48,373 nucleotides of DNA, from contig CAWJGT010000005.1 in assembly GCA_963842525.1 (NCBI GenBank), positions 1 through 48,373 of the forward strand. The letters run 5' to 3'. The first letter of the stretch is position 1. Each line of letters starts with the position of its first letter. The notes under the pieces were generated by a model, which saw only the letters and a list, made by a program, of their open reading frames with translations, searched no databases and had not been told where the DNA came from. Both the position numbers and the translations under genes were made by a program. Shown one piece after another: positions 1 to 48,373 of this stretch. This stretch comes from an uncultured Holophagales bacterium. GTDB lineage: Bacteria > Acidobacteriota > Thermoanaerobaculia > Multivoradales > UBA5704.

Positions 1-195
1 GGCGGCGGCACCCGCAAGGCGGTATCTGCCATGGGGGCCACGGGGGCCGCGGGGGCAGGATCGGCCGAGCCCGCCGTGGAGCTCGCCAAGGTGAGCAGAG
101 CTGCCCCAGGTCCAGGCGCTCCTTGATATCTTCGGTGGGCGCGTCGAGACCGTCGAAGAGCGCGAGCATCTCCCAGGGAGGAGTCAACCCGATGA
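1..195 (+). CDS. dnaX: Probable 3' end of DNA polymerase III gamma/tau subunit (partial, frameshifted)
   Basis: One frame reads ...[21 protein letters not shown], resembling DnaX C-termini; position matches the conserved dnaX-ybaB-recR order; probable ATGA overlap with ybaB at 192-195 after an indel. Confidence 0.5.
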
Positions 196-486
196 GCAGC
201 ATGCGTCAACTCATGAAACAGGCCCAGGAGATGCAGGAGCGGCTCCAGCGCGAGCTGAACCAGTTCGTCGTGGAGACCAGCGTCGGCGGCGGTATGGTCA
301 CCGTCCAGATCAGCGGCCACAAGCAGCTCGTCTCCGTCAAGATCGACCCTGAAGCCATCGATCCATCCGACCTCTCCATGCTCGGACCTCATCGTCGCCG
401 CGGTCAACCAGGCGGGCCGCAAGGTCGAAGAGACCATGCAGGGCAAGATGGGCGCGATGGCGTCGAGCCTGCCCGGCCTGTTCTGA
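192..486 (+). CDS. ybaB: YbaB/EbfC nucleoid-associated protein (one frameshift near 384)
   Basis: [15 protein letters not shown]...[11 protein letters not shown]...KIDP; after a shift at ~384 continues [23 protein letters not shown]...LPGLF-TGA(484-486). Confidence 0.9.
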
Positions 487-509
487 TCCACTGCTTCGAT
501 GTCCGACCG

Positions 510-1094
510 ATGCCCGACCCTCTGGCCCGACTGATCGGCGAGCTCGCGCGCCTGCCGGGCATCGGGCCCAAGACCGCAACGCGCTTGGCCCACTATCTCC
601 TCAAGGTGCCCGCCACCGACGCCCAAGCCCTCGCCGAGGCCATCGTCGAGGTGAAGGAGAAGCTCTTCCACTGCTCAGTGTGCAATGCGATCACCGCCAT
701 CGACCCGTGCCGCTACTGCGACGACGAGCGGCGCGACCGCATCCGTATCTGCGTCGTCGAGGAGCCGTTCAACATCGAGCCCATCGAGCGGACGGGGGAA
801 TACCACGGCCTTTACCACGTCCTGCTCGGAGCCCTCTCGCCGCACCGCGGGATCGGCCCCGACCGCCTAGCCATCGCCGGGCTGCTGGCCCGCCTCGAAG
901 GGATTGAGGAGGTCGTGGTGGCGACCAACCCGAACGTCGAGGGCGAGGCCACGGCCCTCTACCTGGCCCGCCTGCTCAAGCCCCGGGGCGTGCGGGTCAC
1001 CCGCCTCGCCTTCGGCATGCCCGTCGGCGGCGATATTGAATATACCGACGAGGTGACCCTGGGGCGGTCGCTGGCCGGCCGGCGCGAGATGTGA
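510..1094 (+). CDS. recR: Recombination mediator RecR
   Basis: LPGIGPKTA HhH, C4 zinc finger (CSVC...CRYC), Toprim VVEE and [12 protein letters not shown] motifs; ATG at 510. Confidence 0.97.
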
Positions 1095-2392
1095 CCGCCT
1101 TCGGCGAGCTCCTCCCCCGCATGGTCGTCCCGCCGCCGGGGCCCCGCGCCCGCGAGCTGTCCCGGTGCCTCGCCGCGGTCGAAGCCCCCGGCATCAACAC
1201 CTTGGCTCCAGGTGGACCCGGCGATCCACCGGCTCCCTCGCTCCTCTGGGAGGAGGCCCGGGGAGCGAACGTCCGCGACGTCGACGGCAATATCTATATA
1301 GACCTCACCGCCGCCTTCGGCGTGGCCGCGGTGGGGCACGCGCACCCGCGGGTCGTCGAGGCGGTGCGCGAGCAGGCAGGCCGGCTCCTCCATGGGCTGG
1401 GGGACGTCCACGCCCATCCGCTGCGGGTCGAGCTGGCCGCACGCCTGGCGCGCCTCGCGCCGGTGGACGACGCCCAGGTCTTCTTCTCCATCTCCGGCGC
1501 CGAAGCCGTGGAGATCGCGCTCAAGACGGCCCTCGCCGCCACCGGCCGGCCCGGCGTCCTCGCCTTCGAGCCCTCCTACCACGGCATGACGCTGGGCGCC
1601 TTGGCCGTCACCTCGCGGGACGAGTTCCGCACGCCTTTCGCCGCCCATCTCCACGGCCACGTGCGCCGGCTCCCCTACGGCTGCCATCCCGGCGAAATCA
1701 CAGCCGTCCTCGACCGGGAAGAGATCGGCGCCGTAATCGTCGAGCCGATCGTCGGCCGGGAGGGCGTCCTGGTGCCGCCTGCCGGCTGGCTTCCCGCCCT
1801 CGCCGAAGCCTGCCAGAGCGTCGGCGCCCTGCTGATCGCGGACGAGGTCTTCACCGGCTTCGGCCGCACCGGGACCCTCTTCGCGGTCGAAGCCGACGGG
1901 GTGCGGCCGGACCTGCTCTGCTGCGGCAAGGCGCTCGGCGGAGGCTTGCCCATCGCCGCCGTGATCGCCCGCCGCGACCTCTTCCGCTGCTGGGAGACCC
2001 CCGGCGAGGCGCGCCACACCGCCACCTTCGTGGCCAACCCCCTGGCCTGCGCCGCCGCCCTGGCCGTGCTCGACATCCTTGAAGAGGAGGATCTGACAAC
2101 GCGCGCCGTTCGCCTCGGCGCCGGAGTGGCCGAGCGGCTGGCGGGCTGGCGGGAACGCTTCCCGGCCGTCTCGGACGTGCGCGGGCGGGGGCTCCTCTGG
2201 GGCGTCGAGCTGGCCTCCAAGGACCTCGCCAAGCGGCTCACCTCGGAGGCGCTCGCGCGAGGGCTCCTCCTGCTTGCCGGCGGGCCGGAGGGGCGGGTGG
2301 CCCAGATCGTACCGCCGCTCCTGATCCCTGAGCCGCTGCTCGATGCGGCGCTCACGATTCTGGAAGAGGAGCTCGAGGAGAAACGTCCGTGA
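1091..2392 (+). CDS. Class III PLP-dependent aminotransferase (GabT/ArgD-like)
   Basis: [52 protein letters not shown] motifs; GTGA overlap with recR stop. Confidence 0.93.
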
Positions 2393-2958
2393 GCGCTCCG
2401 CGGTACAAGATTGCCTTCATTGGCAGCCATGGCGTAGGGAAGACCACCCTCTGCTACGGTCTCGCCGCGCGCCTCAAGGTTCGGGACGTGGCGGTCGAGG
2501 TTGTGCATGAAGTGGCGCGGCGCTGTCCGCTGCCGATCAACGAGGAGACCTCGGTCGCCGCGCAGTCGTGGATCCTCCACGCCCAGATCACCGAGGAGCT
2601 GGTGGCCCAGTCCCGCTATCCGGCGGTGATCTGCGACCGGAGCGTCCTCGACAACTATGTCTACCTCCTGCTCTCCGCCGGCCGGCAGGAGGAGTTGGAG
2701 ACGCTCGTGGAGTCCTGGATGCGCACCTACGACCTCCTGGTGCACGTGCCGGTCCTGGAGCAGCCAAACCCGGACGGCATCCGCTCGGCCAATCCGGCGT
2801 TCCAGCTCGCCGTGGAGGAGCGCCTCGCCCGCGAGCTCGACGGCCGCGGCATCTCCGCCCTCCACCTCGCCCCCGACAGCCGCGCATCCTGGCTCGATAC
2901 GGTCGAGCAGGAGGTCTGGGAGCACGTCCTCGGGCCGGTGCAGCTCCCGCTGCTGTGA
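2389..2958 (+). CDS. P-loop NTPase/kinase (AAA_28/NadR-kinase-like)
   Basis: Walker A GSHGVGKTT, EVAR, ICDRSVLD, DGIR motifs; overlaps upstream stop codon. Confidence 0.85.
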   Translation: MSAPRYKIAFIGSHGVGKTTLCYGLAARLKVRDVAVEVVHEVARRCPLPINEETSVAAQSWILHAQITEELVAQSRYPAVICDRSVLDNYVYLLLSAGRQEELETLVESWMRTYDLLVHVPVLEQPNPDGIRSANPAFQLAVEERLARELDGRGISALHLAPDSRASWLDTVEQEVWEHVLGPVQLPLL

Positions 2959-2988
2959 GGAAGGACCCGAGATCGGGACGCTGCCCAT

Positions 2989-3373
2989 GGACCCGGGACA
3001 ACGCGCCACGGTCTCGGGATCATGCCTAAAGGACCGCAGTCAACGTGCCGCGTCCTTTAGTCCGTGCTTGAGGGACCGCGGTCCGCGGCCCGTTTCCTAC
3101 AGTCGATGCTTGAGGGACCGCGGTCCGCGTGACTTTTTCTTTAGTCCCTGCTACAAGGACCCGGGTCCGTGCGACGTTTGCTGTAGTCAATGCTTCAGGG
3201 ACCCGGGTCCGCGGCTCATTTGCTTTATTCCGTGCTTGAGGGATCGCGGTCCGCGGCCCATTTCCTGTAGTCAGTACTTGAGGGACCCGGGTCCGCGGGT
3301 CGTTTCCTGCAGTCAATGCTTTAAGGACCACGGTCCGCGAGACGTTTTCCCGGGATTCCTTGACCTCGGCCCC
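2989..3373. repeat. 42-bp tandem repeat array with palindromic GGACC-NN-GGTCC core (9 phased units plus 1 degenerate)
   Basis: Core starts at 2989, 3031, 3073, 3115, 3157, 3199, 3241, 3283, 3325 (exactly 42 apart); degenerate copy at 3361. Confidence 0.92.
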
Positions 3374-3430
3374 GCCCCAGACACCCTCTGACGGCGGCGC
3401 GTAGATCGGCTAACATGGCGCCGAGCCCGG

Positions 3431-4108
3431 ATGACCATGCCCACTTTCGAAGGGATCTTCATCTTCCTCCTGGCCCTCCTTGGCGCCGCGGCGTCGATCG
3501 GGCTGTTCTTGGTGTTGCGGCGGTCGGAGGGGAGCCCGGCGATGGAAGCGCTGGGGCGGGGAGACTTCGCGGCGGCCCTGGCGGCGGCGCGGACGGAGGG
3601 GCGGGCCCGGCGGGACGAGCTGTACGCTGCGGCCGTAGCCGCCAAGCACCTGCTCGATCTGAAAACCTCCCGCGAGCTCCTGCGGCGGATCCTCGCCGAC
3701 GATCCGGAGGACGGGGAGGCCTGGCTGGAGTCCGGCCTCGTCGCCTCCTATGGGGGCGACTACGCCGCGGCCGAGCAGGCCTTCGCCACGGCGGCCGCCA
3801 ACCGCTCCGACCTCGCCGAGTCCATTAACCTCCACCGCGCCTGGCTCGAGCTGCGGCGCGGAAATCCTCCGGCGGCCCGCCGCCTCTTCGACGAGGTCGA
3901 GGCGCCTCTCGAGAGCAAGCTGCGCTCCGACCTGGGCAGCGGCGAGCCCCTCTTCGCCGAGTGGTTCCTCCAGGCTGCCGCCCTGTGGGCCGCCTTCGGC
4001 GATCCCGACCGGGCCGCATGGGCGCGCCGCGAAGGCCAGGCCTCGGCTCCGGCCAGCCGCCTCGCCGAGCTCCTGCTCACCGACTCCGGTCCGCTTCCGC
4101 TACAATAG
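3431..4108 (+). CDS. Membrane-anchored TPR-like protein
   Basis: N-terminal hydrophobic helix followed by TPR-like segments (DPEDGEAWLESGLV...GDYAAAEQAF). Confidence 0.75.
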   Translation: MTMPTFEGIFIFLLALLGAAASIGLFLVLRRSEGSPAMEALGRGDFAAALAAARTEGRARRDELYAAAVAAKHLLDLKTSRELLRRILADDPEDGEAWLESGLVASYGGDYAAAEQAFATAAANRSDLAESINLHRAWLELRRGNPPAARRLFDEVEAPLESKLRSDLGSGEPLFAEWFLQAAALWAAFGDPDRAAWARREGQASAPASRLAELLLTDSGPLPLQ

Positions 4109-4115
4109 GCGGACC

Positions 4116-5126
4116 TTGAGCCTCCAGGGACTTTTCCGGCAGTGGGATCTCTTCTCCCACTTCAGCGATGAGCAGTTGTCTCAGCTCGCCGGGTGCGCCT
4201 CCCTCGTCCAGCATCCGGCCGACACCCTGGTGGTCCAGGAGGGGGAGGCGTCTCGCGGCGCCTACATGATCCGCAGCGGCGGCATCCGCATCCAGAGGAA
4301 GACCCCCTACGGCCTGTTCTCCCTGGCCAGCCTCGGTCCCGGCGATCTCTTCGGCGAAACCGCCATCGTCGACCACGGGCCGCGGACCGGCTCGGCGGTC
4401 ACCACCGCCGAGACCGAGATCGTCGCCTTCGACCAGGCGGCGCTCGCGGCGCAGCAGGAGCGCGACCCGGGCTTCCAACTCGCCCTCTACTGGACCTTCT
4501 GGAAGAGCCTCTCGGGGAAGCTCCGCCAGACGAACGCCAACCTCAGCCAGTTCTTCGCCGAGACCGGCGGTCCACCGCCCGGCGATCCGATCACCCACGC
4601 CCAACCGGGAGGGGAGTTCCGCGTCGACCTGGCGGTCAAGCGCAAGCTCTTCCAGGAACAGAAGCTCTCCAACCTGGAGATCAACTTCCTCTCCACCCTT
4701 TCGAAGGAGAAGAAGTTCGCCCCCAACCAGGTCATCTTCCGCGAGGGGGAGACGGCCTACGAGATGTACATCGTGCTCGAGGGGCGCGTGATGATCAGCA
4801 AGTTCATCCCGGGGGCGGGCGAGGAGGCCCTCGCCTTCCTCGAACGCGGCGGCTACTTCGGAGAGATGGCGCTCATCGACAACGCGCCGCGCTCGGCCGA
4901 CGCCAAGGCGCATGACGAGGGAGCCGTCGTCCTCGCCATCCCGCGCGACGTCCTGGAGGGGATCCTCGACATCAACAAGGTCTCCTCCCTGCGTCTGCTC
5001 TCGATCCTCTGCAACCTGGTGGCGGGCCGGCTGCGCGAGATCGACGACAAGATCATCACCTGGTTCATCCTCGCCGGCGGGACCGGGATCTCCTGGCCGG
5101 TGGACCGCCCGCGGAAGCGCGCCTGA
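4116..5126 (+). CDS. Protein with two cyclic nucleotide-binding domains
   Basis: Two cNMP folds: LGPGDLFGETAIVDHGPRTGS and LERGGYFGEMALIDNAPRSAD; probable TTG start at 4116. Confidence 0.88.
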   Translation: MSLQGLFRQWDLFSHFSDEQLSQLAGCASLVQHPADTLVVQEGEASRGAYMIRSGGIRIQRKTPYGLFSLASLGPGDLFGETAIVDHGPRTGSAVTTAETEIVAFDQAALAAQQERDPGFQLALYWTFWKSLSGKLRQTNANLSQFFAETGGPPPGDPITHAQPGGEFRVDLAVKRKLFQEQKLSNLEINFLSTLSKEKKFAPNQVIFREGETAYEMYIVLEGRVMISKFIPGAGEEALAFLERGGYFGEMALIDNAPRSADAKAHDEGAVVLAIPRDVLEGILDINKVSSLRLLSILCNLVAGRLREIDDKIITWFILAGGTGISWPVDRPRKRA

Positions 5127-6211
5127 GCGTTCCTCCCTCCGCCAGGCTCCCGAGCACCTTCCCCACCAGCGACGACTGCGGCAGCCCGGCCCGGCGCCCC
5201 TCGTTCGAACCACCCCGCCGCCGCCTCCGGAGCCTCCGAGCCATGGCGCACCGGCCCGCCTTTCGGCCGCTCAGCCAGCTCCGCCCGGTGCACCGCGATC
5301 TCGAGATTCCGGTAGGTGATCCCGTGGCGGACCGCCGCTTCCTGCTCCCGCAGGCTCCACCTGCCGCCATACCGCGCGCCCAGGTCCGTCTCCGCCCGCT
5401 CCAGGGAGCCATCCGCGGGAACGGGCACCCACGGCAGCTCCCAGGTTCCGGCCAGGAGCTCGCTGTCGTCGGGCCGCCGGAAGAGCAGCACGCCGCGGTC
5501 GTCCTCGACCACGGCGACCAGCAGCCGGTGCCGTTCCGGCTCGCGCTTCACCCGCGGCGGCGGGTACCGCTCGGGGTTCCCCCCGGCCGCGGCCCGGCAG
5601 CCGGTGGAGAGCGGACAGAGGAGGCACTTGGGGCGGCGCGGGGTGCAGAGGGTAGCGCCCAGCTCCATGAGGGCCTGGTTGCTGTCGCCCGGGCGCTCCG
5701 GATCGAGCAGGGACGAAGCCGCAGCCAGGAGAGCCTTGCGGGCGGCGCTCCCCTTCGAGTCCGCGTCGAGAGCCAGCCAGCGGGAGAGGACGCGCTCGAC
5801 GTTGCCGTCGAGCACCGGCTCGGGGACGCCGAAGGCGATGCTCGCCACTGCCGCCGCCGTGTAGGGCCCGATCCCCGGCAGCTCGCGCAGCCCCTCGACG
5901 GTCCGCGGGAACCCGCCGAGCTCGGCGACCCGCCGCGCCGCGGCATGGAGCTGCCGGGCTCGCCGGTAGTAGCCCAGGCCCGACCAGAGGGTGAGGACCT
6001 CTTCGAGGTCTGCCTGCGCAAGGGCCTGGGCGGTGGCAAATTTTTCCAGGAACCTCTTGTAATAGGGGAGCACCACCTCCACGCGCGTCTGCTGGAGCAT
6101 CACTTCCGAGAGCCAGATGCGGTAGGGATCGCGCGTTCGGCGCCAGGGCAGGTCGCGGCGGTGCCTGTTGAACCAGGCGAGGAGGTTCTGGGCATGCCGC
6201 ACCCGCGTCAT
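5065..6211 (-). CDS. mutY: A/G-specific adenine glycosylase MutY (frameshift near 5200; 3' end approximate)
   Basis: RDLPWR, WLSEVMLQQT, WSGLGYYRRA, LPGIGPYTA, DGNVERV, 4Fe-4S CTPRRPKCLLCPLSTGC; NUDIX-like tail ends LPQSSLVGKVL in an alternative frame. Confidence 0.95.
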
Positions 6212-6281
6212 TCTATCTCGGGTCGGCCAATTTGGCAGGCAAGAATGGCGATTTCAGCACGACGCGCAGAGAGGTCTGCTG

Positions 6282-6316
6282 AAAAAGAAAATCCCCCTCC
6301 CCGAAGGGGAGAGGGC
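6282..6316 (-). terminator. Intrinsic terminator of ncRNA unit 1
   Basis: Minus strand CCCTCTCCCC-TTC-GGGGAGGGGG stem (one G-U) followed by ATTTTTCTTTTT. Confidence 0.8.
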
Positions 6317-6475
6317 TTTAAGAGGGGGGCATCCCATCTCTCCGGTTGGCTTATTTGGCTCTACCCCTGTCAATAGGGGATCAGGAGGATGTTTTGCAAA
6401 GGTGAGGCACTAGGGCCTCGTTTTTAGGTGGGAAGTCTTTTGGTGTGTGGGAGCTTCCCCCTCGTCATTTCCTGA
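6282..6475 (-). ncRNA. Putative sigma54-dependent structured ncRNA, unit 1 (~195 nt)
   Basis: Own promoter and terminator; closing helix GAGGGGG..TCCCA / TGGGA..CCCCCTC; hairpins at 6404-6419 and 6364-6379 shared with units 2 and 3; ends inferred from promoter and terminator. Confidence 0.7.
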
Positions 6476-6485
6476 ATCTAACCCC

Positions 6486-6501
6486 TGCAACAACCGTGCC
6501 T
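6486..6501 (-). promoter_or_regulatory. sigma54 -24/-12 promoter, unit 1
   Basis: Minus strand AGGCAC-GGTTG-TTGCA against consensus TGGCAC-N5-TTGCW. Confidence 0.8.
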
Positions 6502-6536
6502 GGTTTCTCATTCCTTCTCTCCCACTCCTCCCCCTC

Positions 6537-6570
6537 AAAAGGAAAACGCTCCCAGCGGGGCTGGGAGCGT
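6537..6570 (-). terminator. Intrinsic terminator of ncRNA unit 2
   Basis: Perfect 10-bp stem ACGCTCCCAG/CTGGGAGCGT (6546-6570) then TTTCCTTTT on the minus strand. Confidence 0.85.
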
Positions 6571-6733
6571 CACGGGGGGAAGCCCATCTCTCCGGTTGGT
6601 CCTTGTGGATCTACCCCTGTTGAAGGGGGATTCGGCAGGTCGGATGAGAGGGTGAGATCTAGAGATCTCGGGATACGGTAGGCTTGGTCGTTGGCTGGTG
6701 GAACATCCCCCTCGGTCATTCTCCTGTATGCCT
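6537..6733 (-). ncRNA. Putative sigma54-dependent structured ncRNA, unit 2 (~197 nt)
   Basis: Closing helix GGGGGA.GTTC / GGGC.TCCCCC; hairpins at 6654-6669 (GAGATC/GATCTC) and 6614-6628 (CCCCT/AGGGG); conserved TAGATCC..CCAACCG. Confidence 0.7.
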
Positions 6734-6743
6734 TCTCTCAGAC

Positions 6744-6759
6744 TGCAATGGCCGTGCCC
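6744..6759 (-). promoter_or_regulatory. sigma54 -24/-12 promoter, unit 2
   Basis: Minus strand GGGCAC-GGCCA-TTGCA. Confidence 0.8.
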
Positions 6760-6779
6760 GGTCCTCTCCTTGGGGCACT

Positions 6780-6806
6780 AAAAGGAAACGGGAGCTTTCG
6801 CTCCCG
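6780..6806 (-). terminator. Intrinsic terminator of ncRNA unit 3
   Basis: CGGGAGC-GAAA-GCTCCCG (GNRA loop on the minus strand) then TTTCCTTTT. Confidence 0.85.
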
Positions 6807-6985
6807 AGCCGAGCGTTGGGGGGGAGGTCCTGAGTTGGGACGGTTGGTTGTGGGATCTACCCCTGTAGAAGGGGAGAGGGAAAGGGATATCAAAGAAGTT
6901 AACGAGATCTCAGGATCTCTTGGAGATGGCAGGAACTTCCGTTTGGCTGGACGGCACCTCCCCCTGAACGCTCTATGAACTTGCC
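6780..6985 (-). ncRNA. Putative sigma54-dependent structured ncRNA, unit 3 (~205 nt)
   Basis: Closing helix GAGCGTT..GGGGGAGGT (6973-6956) / ACCTCCCCC..AACGCTC (6828-6811); hairpins at 6904-6919 and 6860-6874. Confidence 0.7.
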
Positions 6986-6995
6986 CTTCCTTCTC

Positions 6996-7011
6996 TGCAA
7001 TAGACGTACCA
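6996..7011 (-). promoter_or_regulatory. sigma54 -24/-12 promoter, unit 3
   Basis: Minus strand TGGTAC-GTCTA-TTGCA. Confidence 0.8.
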
Positions 7012-7345
7012 CTTTCGGATGAAAGGAGTAAGTCTTTTGTTGCGAGCAGCTTATCTTCTTGAAGCAAGAGGTTCGCGAGGATCTCGAAGATATTCTCTCG
7101 TGTAAATCCTTCCTTCGATCCCGAAGCATTTCTACAAGACTCACCACGCGGGAGGCGTAGGATACGCTGCCCCTGGGAAGGGAGGAGAGTTTGTAGACCC
7201 ATGGACACCGCACCAAAAGTTCTTTCTTCGGAGTCACCCTGCCGGAGGGGTTGCGGGCACGAATGGGTGTTGCTATGATGCGTCCAGTCGTAGCGAGTAG
7301 CGTCTGTCTCCACTGCACTGACGACCCCACCCTCCAGGGTTAGGG

Positions 7346-7377
7346 TTTTCCACACCCTGTGGAATTCCTGCGGAATT
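7346..7377. promoter_or_regulatory. DnaA-box cluster upstream of dnaA
   Basis: TTTTCCACA (7346-7354), TGTGGAATT (7358-7366), TGCGGAATT (7369-7377). Confidence 0.7.
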
Positions 7378-7404
7378 TGACTAGCTTCACGCGTCCGAGG
7401 TCCC

Positions 7405-8696
7405 ATGCCCCAGTCTCTCTGGTCGCTCCTCCAGAAACAGCTCCAGAAGAGCTCGATCCCGAGGAGTTCGCGACCTGGTTCCTCCCCCTGAAGGTACGCA
7501 AGGAGGGGCAGGGCCACCTGATCCTTCTCGCTCCCAATTCCCGTTTCCTGCACACGCTCGAAGAGAGCTACCGTTCCGTCGTGGACCGGGCTCTGGCCGG
7601 CCTCAGCGGCCGCCCCTTTGAGGTTCACTTCTTGTTGGAGGAAGACGACAAGGAGGTGTCCACCGACGAGGTGCCGGCGCCGGGGCACTTCAATCCGAAG
7701 TACATCTTCCAGACCTTCGTCGTGGGCAAGTCCAACGAGTTCGCCCATGCCGCGGCCAAGGCGGTGGCCGAGAACCCGTCCCACAGCTACAACCCGTTGT
7801 TCCTCTACGGCGGCGTAGGGCTCGGCAAGACGCACCTTCTGCATGCCATCGGGCACGAGATCCTGCAACGCAGACCCAACCTCCGGGTCTTCTACCTGGT
7901 GGCCGAGCAGTTCGTCAACGAGCTGATCAACTCTATCCGCTTCGACCGCATGCCCCAGTTCCGCGAGCGATACCGGACCATCGACGTCCTGTTGATCGAC
8001 GACGTGCAGTTCATCGCCAACAAGGAGCGGACGCAGGAGGAGTTCTTCCACACCTTCAACACGCTCTATACGAGCCAGAAGCAGATCATCCTCTCGTCCG
8101 ACTCCTCGCCGCGGAACATCCCGACCCTGGAGGAGCGTCTGCGCAGCCGCTTCGAGTGGGGCCTGATCGCCGACATCCAGCCGCCGGACCTCGAAACCAA
8201 GGTGGCGATCCTGCAGCGCAAGGCTTATACCGAGGGCGTCACCCTCCCCGACGATGTGGCTGTCTTCATCGCCCGGCAGGTCAAATCGAACATCCGCGAG
8301 CTCGAAGGGCTCCTCAACCGGGTCATCGCCCACTCCTCTCTGACTGCCACGCCGCTGTCGCTCGACCATGCCAAGGAGACCCTCAAGGACATCCTTCCCG
8401 AGGAGGGGAAGAAGCCGAACCCGGCAAAGATCGTCAAGGCGGTCGCCGACCATTACGGCCTGAAGGTCGCGGAGATCAAGAGCAAGAGCAACTCGCAACA
8501 GATCGTCTTTCCTCGCAAGGTGGCCATGTACCTGCTGCGCAAGCTCTCGGAGGTCTCCTATCCCGAGATCGGCAAGATCTTCAACGACAAGCACCACTCC
8601 ACGGTCATGTACGCCGTCCGCGACATCGAGGACCGCCGTGCACGGGACGCGGACCTCGACCGCGTGCTCCATGGGCTGGAGCAGCAATTCGGTTGA
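7405..8696 (+). CDS. dnaA: Chromosomal replication initiator DnaA (indel near 7449)
   Basis: ATG 7405 MPQSLWSLLQKQLQK joins ELDPEEFATWF after a shift; YNPLFLYGGVGLGKTHL, LLIDDVQF, QEEFFHTFN, RLRSRFEWG, SNIRELEG, HHSTVMYA. Confidence 0.98.
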
Positions 8697-8940
8697 CTCC
8701 CCAGATAGAGAGGGCCTGGAAAAGCTGTGAAAAGACTGTGCAGGAGAAGCCCTGAATCCCTGTGGAGGGACTGCGGAATTTTCCCGGCCGCCGCAACTTT
8801 TCCGCAACCCCCACAAGCCCGTCCGCAGCTTCCCCACAACCCCCTCACAGAAGCCAAGCTGCCTGGAATCAGGAGCTTGACCCCCACTTCCGCAGTTTCC
8901 GCAGCCCCTATCTACTACTACGGCTATGCTATATATTCAG
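8697..8940. other. oriC: degenerate DnaA boxes, GC-rich spacer, DnaA-trios and AT-rich DUE
   Basis: About 11 TGTG/TGCGGA- and CCACA/CCGCA-type boxes; tandem boxes 8886-8903, GCCCC 8904-8908, TATCTACTACTAC 8909-8921, then CTATATATT; located between dnaA and dnaN. Confidence 0.85.
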
Positions 8941-8965
8941 ATGTCTTCTAGACGGAGAAGAGTGA

Positions 8966-10064
8966 ATGGAGATCCGCCTCAATCGCAGTGAATTCCTGGG
9001 CTGAGCTCGTCCCCATGCAGGGGATCGTCGAGCGCAAGACGACCATCCCTATCCTGTCCCACCTGCTGCTGACCGCGCGCGAGGACAGGCTTCACCTGGC
9101 CGCGACCGACCTCGACGTGTCGCTGACCTCCTGGTGCGATGCGGAGGTCCGCAGCGAAGGAGGAATCGCCGTCCAGGCCAAGAAGCTGGCGGAGATCATT
9201 CGCTCGCTGACGGCCGACGAGGTGATGCTGTCGCAGGAGGAGCCGCGCGAGCTCACCATCCGCTCCGGCCGGTCGCGGTTCCGGATCCACGGCCTGTCGC
9301 CCGATGACTTTCCGACCCTCCCCACGGTCGAGGAGAGCCGCCAGGTGGGGCTGCCGTTCGCCGACTTCCGGCGCATGGTCGCCAAGATCCTCTTCGCGGT
9401 CTCGGCCGAAGAGTCGCGCTTTCAGCTCAACGGCGCCCTGCTCAAGCTCAAGGACGGCTCGCTGGAGATCGTGGCGACCGACGGCCATCGCCTGGCGCTG
9501 GTCGAGGGAGGCCTCGAGGCGAGCGGCGGAGATGATTCCGTGCTGGTGCCGCGCAAGGCCTTGCAGGAATTACAGAGGCTGGAGGGCGACGGCAAGCTCG
9601 AATACCGCCGCGGGGAGCATCACCTCTCCTTCCGGCTCGGCCGCCGCGAGCTGATCTGCCGGATCCTGGAAGGCACCTTCCCGGACTACGAGAGGGTCAT
9701 CGCCAAGGACAACGACAAAAAAGTCCTCTTCGACCGGAAGCCCCTGGCCGACGCCGTGCAGCGCGTCGCCCTCCTGACCGGCGACCGGGCGCGTGCCGTG
9801 CGGCTCCAGTTCTCTCCGGAGCAGATGGTCGTCTCGGCCGCCAACCCCGACCTCGGCGAGGCGACCGAAGAGGTCGCCTGCGATTACGACGGGCCCGAGT
9901 TCCGGGTGGGGATCAACCCGGACTACCTGACCCAGTTCCTGGCCGCCGTGGAGACCGACCGCGTCCGCCTGGAGCTCAAGGACGAGAACACGCAGTGTGT
10001 GGGCTATCCGCACGAAGGTCCGGACACGCGCTACCTCTGTGTGATCATGCCGATGCGGATCTGA
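8966..10064 (+). CDS. dnaN: DNA polymerase III beta clamp (extra G near 9000)
   Basis: MEIRLNRSEFL..AELVPMQGIVERKTTIPILS, AATDLD, VATDGHRL, FPDYERVI, C-terminal VIMPMRI. Confidence 0.97.
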
Positions 10065-10092
10065 GCCCGGCCGTTCCCGGGCTCCTCCTCCT

Positions 10093-11157
10093 TTGCTCTC
10101 CATCCTCACCACGAGCCACTTCCGGAATCTCGAGCCCCTCAAATGGGGCCCGGGGCCGGGCTCACACCTCCTCCTCGGCGGCAATGGCGCCGGCAAGACG
10201 AGCGTCCTCGAAGCGGTCTATGTCCTGGCCACGACGCGGAGCTTCCGCGCGGCGCGCCTGGAGGACTGCGTACAGCACGGGGCCGAGGGGTTCCACCTCG
10301 AAGGCGAGGCGGAGACCGACCGCCGCACGTCGCTGGAGGTCCGCTGGGTCGAAGGTAAGCGTGTGCGTACCGTCAACGGCAAGGCAGTACCTCTTGCTGA
10401 ACACCTGGCGGTGCTCCCGGTGGTGGCCTGGACCTGGGCCGAAGGGGAGGTCCTGGTCGGCGCTCCTAAAGCCCGCCGCAGGTTCCTGGATCGCGGCGTG
10501 CTCGGGATCCGGCCGGTAGCGCTGGACGTCCTCAACCGCTATCGGGAGGCCCTGGTGCACAAGCGCGACCTCCTGCTCCAGGGCGGACCTGGGATCGAGG
10601 TCTGGAACGAGATGCTGGCCGGCGCGGCGGCGGACCTGATCCGGCTGCGGCACGAGTACGTCGAGAGCTTGCGCGAGGCCCTGGCCACGGTGCTGGAGGA
10701 GTCGGGTCTCCCCTTCCCGCCGATCGAGATGCGGTATCGCCCCTCGCCGAGCGACGGCCTCGAAGGTGCGGCAGCCATCGCCCTCGATCTGGAGCGGATC
10801 GTCGAAAAGGAGCGCCGGAGGCAAGCTCCGCTCCTCGGCCCCCACCGCGACGAGCTCGAAATCCTCTGGGGGGGGCACGACATCCGGCGTGTCGCCTCCG
10901 CCGGCGAGCGCAAGTCCCTCTCGCTTCTCCTCCTCGCCGCCCATGGGAGGACCATCGAGTCGGCCGGCAGGAGCCCGGTCTACCTCCTGGACGACGCCGA
11001 CGCCGAATTGGCACCCACCACCCACGCCGCCGTCTGGAGCGTCTTCACCAGGTCCCGGCAGATCCTCGCCACCTCCAACCGTGCCCAGGTCTGGCTCACC
11101 TTGAACGTCGGCAAGGCCTGGGAGATGGACAAGGGGAAGATGAAGGCGCTGGAGTAG
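10093..11157 (+). CDS. recF: DNA replication/repair protein RecF
   Basis: FRN, GGNGAGKTSVLEA, RRRFLD, GPHRDEL, ASAGE, LLDD..AEL; dnaN-recF-gyrB synteny. Confidence 0.95.
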   Translation: MLSILTTSHFRNLEPLKWGPGPGSHLLLGGNGAGKTSVLEAVYVLATTRSFRAARLEDCVQHGAEGFHLEGEAETDRRTSLEVRWVEGKRVRTVNGKAVPLAEHLAVLPVVAWTWAEGEVLVGAPKARRRFLDRGVLGIRPVALDVLNRYREALVHKRDLLLQGGPGIEVWNEMLAGAAADLIRLRHEYVESLREALATVLEESGLPFPPIEMRYRPSPSDGLEGAAAIALDLERIVEKERRRQAPLLGPHRDELEILWGGHDIRRVASAGERKSLSLLLLAAHGRTIESAGRSPVYLLDDADAELAPTTHAAVWSVFTRSRQILATSNRAQVWLTLNVGKAWEMDKGKMKALE

Positions 11158-11288
11158 TCGTCCGGGAAGCTTTTACCCTCATTTTACGTTGAATGTACAA
11201 GGGATAGGAGCGCTTCTCCCGCCTTCGTTTCGAAGATGGTCGCCGAGGCGGCTTTCCCGTCCCTAAGTGACTGAATCTCCAGCACTAG

Positions 11289-13820
<2,532 letters not shown>

Positions 13821-44744: not shown

Positions 44745-44821
44745 TGGTGCAGCCAGGAGGAGTCGAACCCCCAACCTACAGATCCGTAGTCTGTCGCTCT
44801 ATCCAGTTGAGCTATGGCTGC
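44745..44821 (-). tRNA. tRNA-Arg(ACG)
   Basis: GCAGCCA/TGGCTGC acceptor, ACAGA-CTACGGA-TCTGT anticodon arm, GGTTCGACTCC T arm, CCA. Confidence 0.97.
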
Positions 44822-48175: not shown

Positions 48176-48255
48176 CGGGGCATCGTGGCGCAGCCTGGTA
48201 GCGCACCTGCCTTGGGCGCAGGGGGTCCCCAGTTCAAATCTGGGCGCCCCGACCA
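48176..48255 (+). tRNA. tRNA-Pro(TGG)
   Basis: CCTGC-CTTGGGC-GCAGG anticodon arm, CCCAG-TTCAAAT-CTGGG T arm, CGCCCCG-A-CCA; extra ATC in the 5' acceptor strand. Confidence 0.92.
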
Positions 48256-48298: not shown

Positions 48299-48373
48299 CT
48301 GCCTGTAGCTCAGTTGGATAGAGCGGCGGCCTTCTAAGCCGCGGGTCGGGGGTTCGAATCCCTCCAGGCAGGC
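48299..48373 (+). tRNA. tRNA-Arg(TCT), 3' end cut by window edge
   Basis: CTGCCTG/CAGGCAG acceptor, GCGGC-CTTCTAA-GCCGC anticodon arm, GGTTCGAATCC. Confidence 0.95.

Follow-up and report, generated by a model that had tools for sequence, protein, structure and literature searches.

The window analyzed here, 48,373 nucleotides of contig CAWJGT010000005.1 from the assembly GCA_963842525.1 of an uncultured Holophagales bacterium of soil (phylum Acidobacteriota), carries an array of three small RNA (sRNA) genes on the minus strand of positions 6280-7010, which sits between a mutY-like gene and dnaA. The array consists of three like units, each opening with a sigma-54-type GG-N10-GC element and closing with a hairpin and T run that form a terminator. 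Within each unit, a closing helix (P1) surrounds two hairpins (H2 and H3), and the strands between them are the junctions J1/2 (segment 1), J2/3 (segment 2), and J3/1. The features of the locus are listed below, with two covariance-model scores for each core in parentheses.

4853-6211, minus strand, mutY-like gene with HhH-GPD and NUDIX_4 domains
6283..6315, minus strand, intrinsic terminator of copy A, a 10-pair stem and then a T run
6322..6463, minus strand, core of sRNA copy A, the third and last gene of the array (112.6 and 104 bits), with P1 5' strand 6449-6463, J1/2 6420-6448, H2 6404-6419, J2/3 6379-6403, H3 6364-6378, J3/1 6336-6363, and P1 3' strand 6322-6335
6487..6500, minus strand, sigma-54-type -24/-12 promoter of copy A, read from the sequence as GGCACG-N4-TTGC
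6535..6571, minus strand, intrinsic terminator of copy B, a 12-pair stem and then a T run
6572..6713, minus strand, core of sRNA copy B, the second gene (123.4 and 115.9 bits), with P1 5' strand 6700-6713, J1/2 6670-6699, H2 6654-6669, J2/3 6629-6653, H3 6614-6628, J3/1 6586-6613, and P1 3' strand 6573-6585
6745..6758, minus strand, sigma-54-type promoter of copy B, read in the same way
6779..6806, minus strand, intrinsic terminator of copy C, a 7-pair stem and then a T run
6818..6965, minus strand, core of sRNA copy C, the first gene (78.2 and 77.1 bits), with P1 5' strand 6952-6965, J1/2 6920-6951, H2 6904-6919, J2/3 6875-6903, H3 6860-6874, J3/1 6833-6859, and P1 3' strand 6819-6832
6997..7010, minus strand, sigma-54-type promoter of copy C, likewise read as GGTACG-N4-TTGC
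7100..7136, minus strand, candidate upstream activator site, a dyad of TGTAGAAAT ... ATTTACA that precedes the first promoter by about 126 nt
On the other side of the array from the mutY-like gene, plus strand, dnaA with a Bac_DnaA domain

The P1 duplex of copy A folds at -25.1 kcal/mol, and J3/1 of copy C lacks the GGAGAGAU element that is present in J3/1 of copies A and B. A first-pass annotation made from the letters of the window had described each RNA as a fixed scaffold around two variable segments of 20 to 30 nt, with no effector gene alongside. The six segments that it quoted are all present on the minus strand, exactly at the positions that it gave, and its observation on effectors extends beyond the window, as the flanks here are the mutY-like gene and dnaA and none of the 33 loci compared has an effector gene next to the array. 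A protein-coding reading was rejected: a 49-codon open reading frame runs over copy B, the same frame in copy A stops after 14 codons, and the indels between homologs do not come in multiples of three.

A conserved RNA scaffold

A covariance model (R1) was built first and then refined to R2, which has 21 base pairs, and an alignment (A5) of 63 copies was fitted to the R2 structure. In A5, 93.1% of the cells are paired and double-sided changes occur at 18 of the 21 pairs among the 63 homologs, statistics that favor the structure because the alignment was fitted to that model. None of 500 shuffles of A5 reaches any of five measures, and shifting the pairing partner by one column lowers pairing to 57 to 71%. 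The fractions of paired cells in A5 are as follows.

P1, 11 pairs, 87.8% of cells paired
H2, 6 pairs, 98.6% of cells paired
H3, 4 pairs, 99.6% of cells paired

As an independent check, 62 copies were duplex-folded, one end against the other, with energies of -15.7 to -34.7 kcal/mol. The inner part of P1 clearly covaries, with UUCC/GGGG, GACC/GGUC, UCCC/GGGA, and GUCCC/GGGAC all occurring, and the helix often runs on into the flanks. G-U pairs, which are frequent at several positions, are compatible with the minus strand alone. P1 is conserved in sequence as well as in pairing. The scaffold of closing helix P1 and hairpins H2 and H3 is thus real, and the fixed frame described in the first-pass annotation stands as a common covarying structure.

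Distribution of the sRNA family

No Rfam family describes the array: at gathering thresholds over the whole window only three tRNA genes pass, at 44748-44821 (minus strand), 48179-48249 (plus strand), and 48299-48372 (plus strand). When Rfam 15 was searched over 6150-7400 with E values up to 10, three weak and unrelated matches appeared, at 22.4, 17.3, and 14.9 bits against cutoffs of 50, 49, and 38, and the two strongest fall on terminators. BLAST with the array gave matches in 22 of 41 related genomes, in 21 of 24 genomes of the same family and in none of 16 from other families of the order. An nhmmer search of the fetched loci found 50 distinct copies, with two to four per array, and R2 then found 63 copies in 34 sources, with just three within the 48-kb window. 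In an even sample of the class searched with the covariance model, 12 of 151 genomes matched, all of the same order as the source organism, with the matching families being f1 (3/3), f10 (1/1), f5 (4/5), f9 (2/2), and f4 (1/1). Families of the order that gave no match were f8 (0/23) and f2 (0/1 with the model and 0/2 with BLAST), and none of 114 genomes from ten families of other orders in the class sample matched. A phylum-wide sample gave 4 of 151, again only within the order. An exact-pattern scan of named genomes returned 120 loci, and of the 80 to which R1 was applied, 11 carry true copies, seven labeled Thermoanaerobaculia bacterium and four uncultured Acidobacteriota bacterium. Because these surveys were samples, the family was not found elsewhere rather than shown to be absent; as far as sampled, its sequences appear to be restricted to one order of Acidobacteriota. 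A full-text search of a limited literature collection returned no paper describing an acidobacterial sRNA of this kind. The three genes are therefore regarded as members of an undescribed, order-restricted acidobacterial sRNA family, which is new as a family and known in kind.

The genomic address is also conserved. Within loci reaching only about 1.5 kb to each side, a mutY-like gene lies 3' of the array in 27 of 33 and dnaA lies 5' of it in 9 of 33, including four loci of other families. At two loci of another family of the order, L166 (G144:C13) and L168 (G039:C191), divergent second copies stand at a different locus; they are without H2, and neither a sigma-54 element nor a mutY or dnaA neighbor was recognized for them.

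The source genome is 9.95 Mb long, with 67.8% GC. Window positions 1-8836 are the reverse complement of positions 1-8849 of contig C25, an 8.8-kb contig-end overlap with 98.5% identity and 29 gaps. The second array copy on C25 lies in this overlap, so the genome probably has one array and not two, and given the 29 gaps, small indels in the sRNA sequences of the window may be assembly noise. An example is found in copy B, which reads GGGGGATG on C5 and GGGGGAGG on C25.

In a tree of the 63 copies, whose support is modest because the sequences are short, the copies group by array position across genomes and genera and not by genome, which indicates that the paralogs are old.

Composition and conservation of the junction segments

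The three junctions are predicted to be largely single stranded, with mean unpaired probabilities over 62 copies of 0.74 for J1/2, 0.63 for J2/3, and 0.64 for J3/1, compared with 0.02 to 0.17 for the helix strands. Full-length folds from guessed start sites gave no consistent masking by leader sequence. In a genome of the GC content given above, J1/2 is 41% C and 10% G and J2/3 is 38% C and 9% G, which agrees with the earlier description of the two segments as C rich and similar in length; across all junctions, G makes up 9 to 16%.

Segment 1 has the consensus A-CC-nn-CC-aaa-(4-6 nt)-(a)u-CC-yr-CC-(5-8 nt) in the 63 copies, and its four CC pairs are conserved at 100/94, 92/98, 100/100, and 98/98%. 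In J3/1, CCAACC forms a third box that is just as fixed, with exactly these letters in 46 of the 63 copies. Altogether, there are 3.9 CC-NN-CC boxes per RNA, compared with 1.27 in shuffled sequences. The second box takes the forms CCUACC (16 copies), CCCACC (16), CCUUCC (10), CCUGCC (9), CCAUCC (5), and others, so that the inner two letters change by transitions and transversions while the flanking CC pairs stay. Segment 2 opens with ACCCUCU-like letters over its first 6 to 7 nt in most copies and has a later CC conserved at 72 to 74%.

Copies from eight genomes of two genera were then grouped by array position alone, and identities within and between positions were compared with those of letter-shuffled sequences and with 500 permutations of the position labels.

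J1/2: same position 0.63, other positions 0.59, letter-shuffled 0.49; 0/500 permutations reach the difference
J2/3: same position 0.63, other positions 0.52, letter-shuffled 0.50; 0/500 permutations
J3/1: same position 0.73, other positions 0.62, letter-shuffled 0.49; 0/500 permutations
H2 loop: same position 0.37, other positions 0.37, letter-shuffled 0.38; 206/500 permutations

Whole intercore spacers, with promoter and terminator included, have an identity of 0.51, compared with 0.44 when shuffled. The H2 loops lie at the shuffled level, which indicates that sequence free of constraint has reached saturation at this distance. Segment 2, unlike these loops, is conserved by position, and this rules out both neutral drift and hypervariable guides. 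Examples of its position-specific content are, for positions 1, 2, and 3 in turn, UGAU(A/U)UCCCUU, CUCACC or CCUACC after GAG, and ACCUUU...AUCUUCC. Segment 1 is therefore conserved in all paralogs, and the conservation of segment 2 is confined to copies at the same array position.

These results change the description of the segments. The claim that they differ completely holds roughly for segment 2 between paralogs (0.52, compared with 0.50 shuffled), where the opening 6 to 7 nt and the later CC nevertheless recur, and fails for segment 1 (0.59, compared with 0.49, with CC pairs at 92 to 100%). There are thus not two freely variable segments of 20 to 30 nt, as segment 1 is a family-wide conserved element, and segment 2 is not drifting neutrally among orthologs, an outcome that the first-pass annotation had named as one that would refute its reading if it were observed. 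The anti-Shine-Dalgarno (anti-SD)-like motifs reported earlier are present as letters, TCCTCCT in copy A and CCCTCTC in copies B and C, and they are not a family trait: orthologs of copy A mostly have CUUCC in place of the motif. The likeness to an anti-SD sequence is real for the UCCUCCU of copy A and weak for segment 2 of copy B.

Promoters, terminators, and a candidate activator site

The sigma-54-type promoters are a general feature of the family. The pattern NGGYAY-N5-TKGC is found 20 to 35 nt (in one copy, 45 nt) 5' of the core in 54 of the 62 copies with enough upstream sequence, and five of the eight copies without a strict match show the GG-N10-GC spacing with NTGC. The source genome contains rpoN, 39 Sigma54_activat hits, and Hfq. 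Since each gene has a sigma-54 promoter of its own, each should need an enhancer-binding activator that is responsive to some signal.

The dyad at 7100-7136 is a candidate binding site for such an activator, as judged from its sequence and position. In the family of the source organism, it takes the form TGYAGRAA(T) ... ATTTNTACA and precedes the array's first sigma-54 promoter by about 110 to 155 nt, a pattern recognized by eye and by regular expression only. The strict dyad occurs before 6 of 32 first or single copies, compared with 0.10 expected from shuffles. Its left half, TGYAGRAA, occurs before 18 of 22 first copies in the same family, where about 1.3 would be expected by chance according to our own arithmetic with equal base frequencies, and before 0 of 10 in other families.

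Other conserved signals lie near the promoters. In many genomes, second and third copies have a GGAAT(G) box, also recognized by eye and by regular expression, about 10 to 15 nt before the -24 element (6505-6515 in the window, and L010 to L016); by eye, first copies lack it. A sigma-70-like site, CTGCCA-17-TAGAAT, lies at 6210-6238 on the minus strand directly before the start codon of the mutY-like gene, and its CTGCCAAATTGG part recurs in relatives, which suggests that mutY has a promoter of its own. A C-rich stretch resembling CCCUCUCC is found 3' of P1 of the last copy in L010, L011, L012, L033, and the window (6300-6320). In the window it is the 5' half of the terminator hairpin; in the relatives the G-rich partner is gone, and there is no canonical terminator before mutY.

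Contigs matching the array in sequencing runs

A sequencing run labeled metatranscriptomic, whose RNA nature is guessed, contains two contigs from a relative that are 95 to 99% alike to the window at a depth below 4. The first corresponds exactly to 6324-6460, with adapter directly on both sides of the 137-nt insert, whose ends lie at most 3 nt from the ends of P1 of copy A. The second corresponds to 6810-6956, which is core C. Neither contig covers the spacers, and contigs of DNA-labeled runs cover other parts, spacers included; none of the listed runs with matching sequence is recorded as RNA, and the uncovered parts of the labeled run carry no meaning. The contigs hint, if weakly, at cores that occur as short RNAs, perhaps trimmed to P1.

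The dnaA side of the array

Two inverted DnaA-box-like 9-mers, TTTTCCACA ... TGTGGAATT, lie at 7346-7367 just upstream of dnaA and are conserved in L010, L013, and L014. The pair overlaps the GTG at 7359, the first codon of the longest dnaA open reading frame, so this codon is unlikely to be the real start. The frame from the ATG at 7405 (MPQSLWSLLQKQLQK...) departs near 7450 from that of L010 (compared over about 7405-7460), and the C25 duplicate shows a different indel at the same spot; assembly consensus errors appear more likely than a real frameshift in dnaA. Over 6001-13500, the GC content drops to 0.59 at 6 to 9 kb, compared with about 0.70 on the flanks, and the cumulative GC skew has its minimum at about 10 to 13.5 kb. 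The skew minimum, the dnaA-dnaN genes, and the DnaA boxes suggest that a replication origin is close by.

Proposed interpretation as trans-acting sRNAs

We tentatively favor a reading of the array as sigma-54-activated, trans-acting sRNAs with short C-rich seeds, of which segment 1 would be shared and segment 2 paralog specific; it is the likeliest of the readings considered, at slightly under even odds. An enhancer-binding activator would, on some signal, switch on each gene from its own sigma-54 promoter. Each RNA would fold so that the long helix P1 encloses two small hairpins together with three single strands that are C/A/U rich and depleted of G, and these strands would act in trans by forming a few G-C pairs with mRNA regions that are rich in G. 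The boxes of segment 1 and the CCAACC of J3/1, common to all paralogs, would address shared targets, and segment 2, specific to the array position, would give each paralog targets of its own. The genes show features expected of trans-acting sRNAs, namely, a promoter of their own and conserved single strands that are predicted to be accessible.

Known systems provide partial parallels. In high-GC actinobacteria, the C-rich single strands of the 6C sRNA form multiple G-C pairs with several mRNAs (PMC6486639). The array RNAs resemble 6C as sRNAs of a high-GC host whose C-rich, G-poor single strands are the likely working parts, and the pairing proposed here is adopted by analogy from 6C. However, the C runs of 6C are in hairpin loops, whereas the C boxes of the array are in junction strands inside the closing helix, and 6C is single copy and reportedly driven by SigA/SigB (PMC5014011), whereas the array is tandem with sigma-54 promoters. 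Among the Cuckoo/CcsR1-4 RNAs of Alphaproteobacteria (PMC4615179; PMC8034643), the Cuckoo RNAs form two to four adjacent hairpins, each with a loop containing CCUCCUCCC (PMC4615179). Both they and the array consist of repeated homologous units with C-rich, anti-SD-like motifs, but the array motifs are CC-NN-CC boxes that do not lie in hairpin loops, and every unit is under a separate sigma-54 promoter. The 9-mer CCUCCUCCC is absent from 6230-7060.

The Qrr sRNAs of Vibrio are encoded by several paralogous genes with sigma-54 promoters under one activator, are Hfq dependent, and have both shared and specific targets; their genes are dispersed, with a nearly identical seed. The array shares with them the arrangement of paralogous sRNA genes each under a sigma-54 promoter, but its genes, which have no Rfam match, resemble Qrr in neither sequence nor structure and are tandem, and the single strands of its paralogs are only 0.52 to 0.62 identical, with the conserved parts being short boxes. 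Among the RNAs that act as sponges, CsrB and RsmZ titrate CsrA via GGA motifs, and CrcZ, which depends on sigma-54 and CbrB, titrates Hfq/Crc via A-rich motifs. The array is like these in having many short motifs on accessible RNA from several genes, and like CrcZ in its sigma-54 promoter, but its motif is CC-NN-CC and is neither GGA nor A rich. Three more specific candidates were tried and rejected. For a CsrA sponge, no CsrA match was found in the source genome (96.4% complete), and the junctions have the low G content given above. For a Y RNA or YrlA, the source genome gave no TROVE (Ro/Rsr) match, though control genomes did. For a CRISPR, bridge, or OMEGA guide, which would be expected to match foreign or target DNA over 15 nt or more, neither an adjacent effector nor long segment matches were found.

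Several results weigh against the trans-acting reading. The start of J2/3 shows a weak tendency to pair with the AGA-U-GGG of J3/1 (73.4% paired, compared with 68.6% when shuffled) in a putative helix that competes with inner P1, so two of the supposedly free strands may be partly paired with each other; a second register of this helix has no support. A clear hairpin-plus-T terminator was found by a crude test in just 31 of 61 homologs, a scarcity that is in line with P1-trimmed cores; by the same test, the last copies in relatives are mostly without a terminator, and the first and middle copies mostly have one. The fixed CC pairs with variable inner letters fit recognition by a protein at least as well as they fit pairing with a fixed target.

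The sequence searches identified neither a target nor a partner of the array RNAs, and the lack of a target counts further against trans action. When the nine junction segments were compared with the source genome by blastn-short, the best nonself scores (26.3 to 28.2 bits) were no better than those of 30 letter shuffles each, being equaled by 2 to 27 of the 30. The 718-nt array had no match in 50,697 phage records and two matches in 72,556 plasmid records (Azospirillum), which cover the copy A terminator only at an E value of 0.06. Extended complementarity to the source genome, phages, or plasmids was thus not found. Pairing with the dnaA and mutY leaders is not significant, with z values of -1.7 to +1.5. 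Complements of 7-mers were also counted in 1,466 start regions selected by their SD sequences and compared with 200 shuffles, a test that is indicative only because the home-made gene caller (5,410 calls) is crude, missing the mutY of the window and leaving three-base periodicity upstream of its starts. In this test, the J1/2 segments are not enriched in any copy, and among the J2/3 segments only that of copy A is, a point in favor of the trans-acting reading. The counts of windows with a complementary 7-mer are given below.

Copy A J2/3: 206 windows, shuffled mean 58.8 +/- 40.3, 3/200 shuffles at or above the observed count
Copy B J2/3: 164 windows, shuffled mean 92.9, 18/200 shuffles at or above
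Copy C J2/3: 57 windows, shuffled mean 86.0, 144/200 shuffles at or above
Copy B J1/2: 31 windows, shuffled mean 82.5, 200/200 shuffles at or above (depleted)

Alternative explanations

The main rival, unlikely though serious, is a protein-titrating decoy, in which the CC-NN-CC boxes, four to five per RNA in each of three genes, would sequester an RNA-binding protein or multimer and the sigma-54 activator would set the level of free protein. A simple sponge does not need the position-specific conservation of J2/3, no partner gene adjoins the array, and there is no candidate protein, CsrA being missing from the matches in the nearly complete genome and the motif not being GGA. The repetition of the boxes to about three times the shuffled level nonetheless suits a decoy, as do CC pairs that are 92 to 100% invariant around inner letters free even to transversions, the recurrence of the boxes in all paralogs and throughout the order, the multiplication of the genes in arrays of two to three, and a P1 sequence conserved beyond its pairing. 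The lack of an mRNA target signal in the genome, leader, and start-region tests points in the same direction.

Distinctly unlikely is a structured RNA whose role depends on its place beside dnaA and the probable origin. It would be, for example, a stable, P1-closed particle that is processed from longer transcripts and binds a factor of replication, repair, or transcription, or else a leader acting in cis whose read-through feeds mutY. Its case is mainly one of location, resting on the mutY-like gene downstream and, in the short loci, dnaA upstream at the frequencies given above, the paired DnaA boxes at 7346-7367, and the nearby GC-skew minimum; the high conservation of the junction nucleotides would also suit a structured particle. 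The many last copies without a canonical terminator before mutY would be expected of a leader, but most first and middle copies end in a terminator of their own, copy A and mutY are separated by a promoter-like site of the CTGCCA type that is conserved, and it would be unusual for cis-acting leaders to occur as two to three near-identical frames in a row. The adapter-bounded contig that ends at P1 of copy A fits a processed particle, but it is a single contig of low depth, the run that contains it is taken as RNA by guess, and the array has no Rfam match to 6S or another structured RNA.

A combined scheme, very unlikely when its parts are taken jointly, would make the array a sigma-54-controlled ribonucleoprotein decoy at the replication origin, with a mature RNA that is the P1-closed core trimmed from longer transcripts. 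The CC-NN-CC boxes would then capture a reader of C-rich, G-poor RNA (a KH-type chaperone or Rho), and segment 2 would add an mRNA address. If this were true, one activator signal would retune both a global RNA-binding factor and paralog-specific targets.

Programmable guides in the style of crRNAs, bridge RNAs, or OMEGA RNAs, with an effector encoded elsewhere, deserve next to no credence, for although a constant scaffold surrounds two less conserved segments of like length and segment 2 is unrelated between paralogs, no effector adjoins any of the 33 loci, segment 1 is a conserved element of the whole family, segment 2 is not hypervariable but conserved across genera when copies at one array position are compared, and extended matches are no better than shuffles in the source genome, absent from the phages, and limited to a terminator in the plasmids.

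Implications

The family is cleanly defined, with a covariance model, more than 60 members, promoters uniformly of the sigma-54 type, a putative site for an activator, and a dnaA-mutY address. It also bears on how such arrays are read, since variable segments in a fixed scaffold, when judged from three paralogs, may prove to be conserved short boxes and spacers once orthologs are added. Its ancient paralogs, which differ in one single-stranded element, are a natural test case for the division of targets among paralogous sRNAs, and the family offers soil microbiologists and RNA researchers a handle on sigma-54 regulons and posttranscriptional control in an abundant, poorly cultured phylum.

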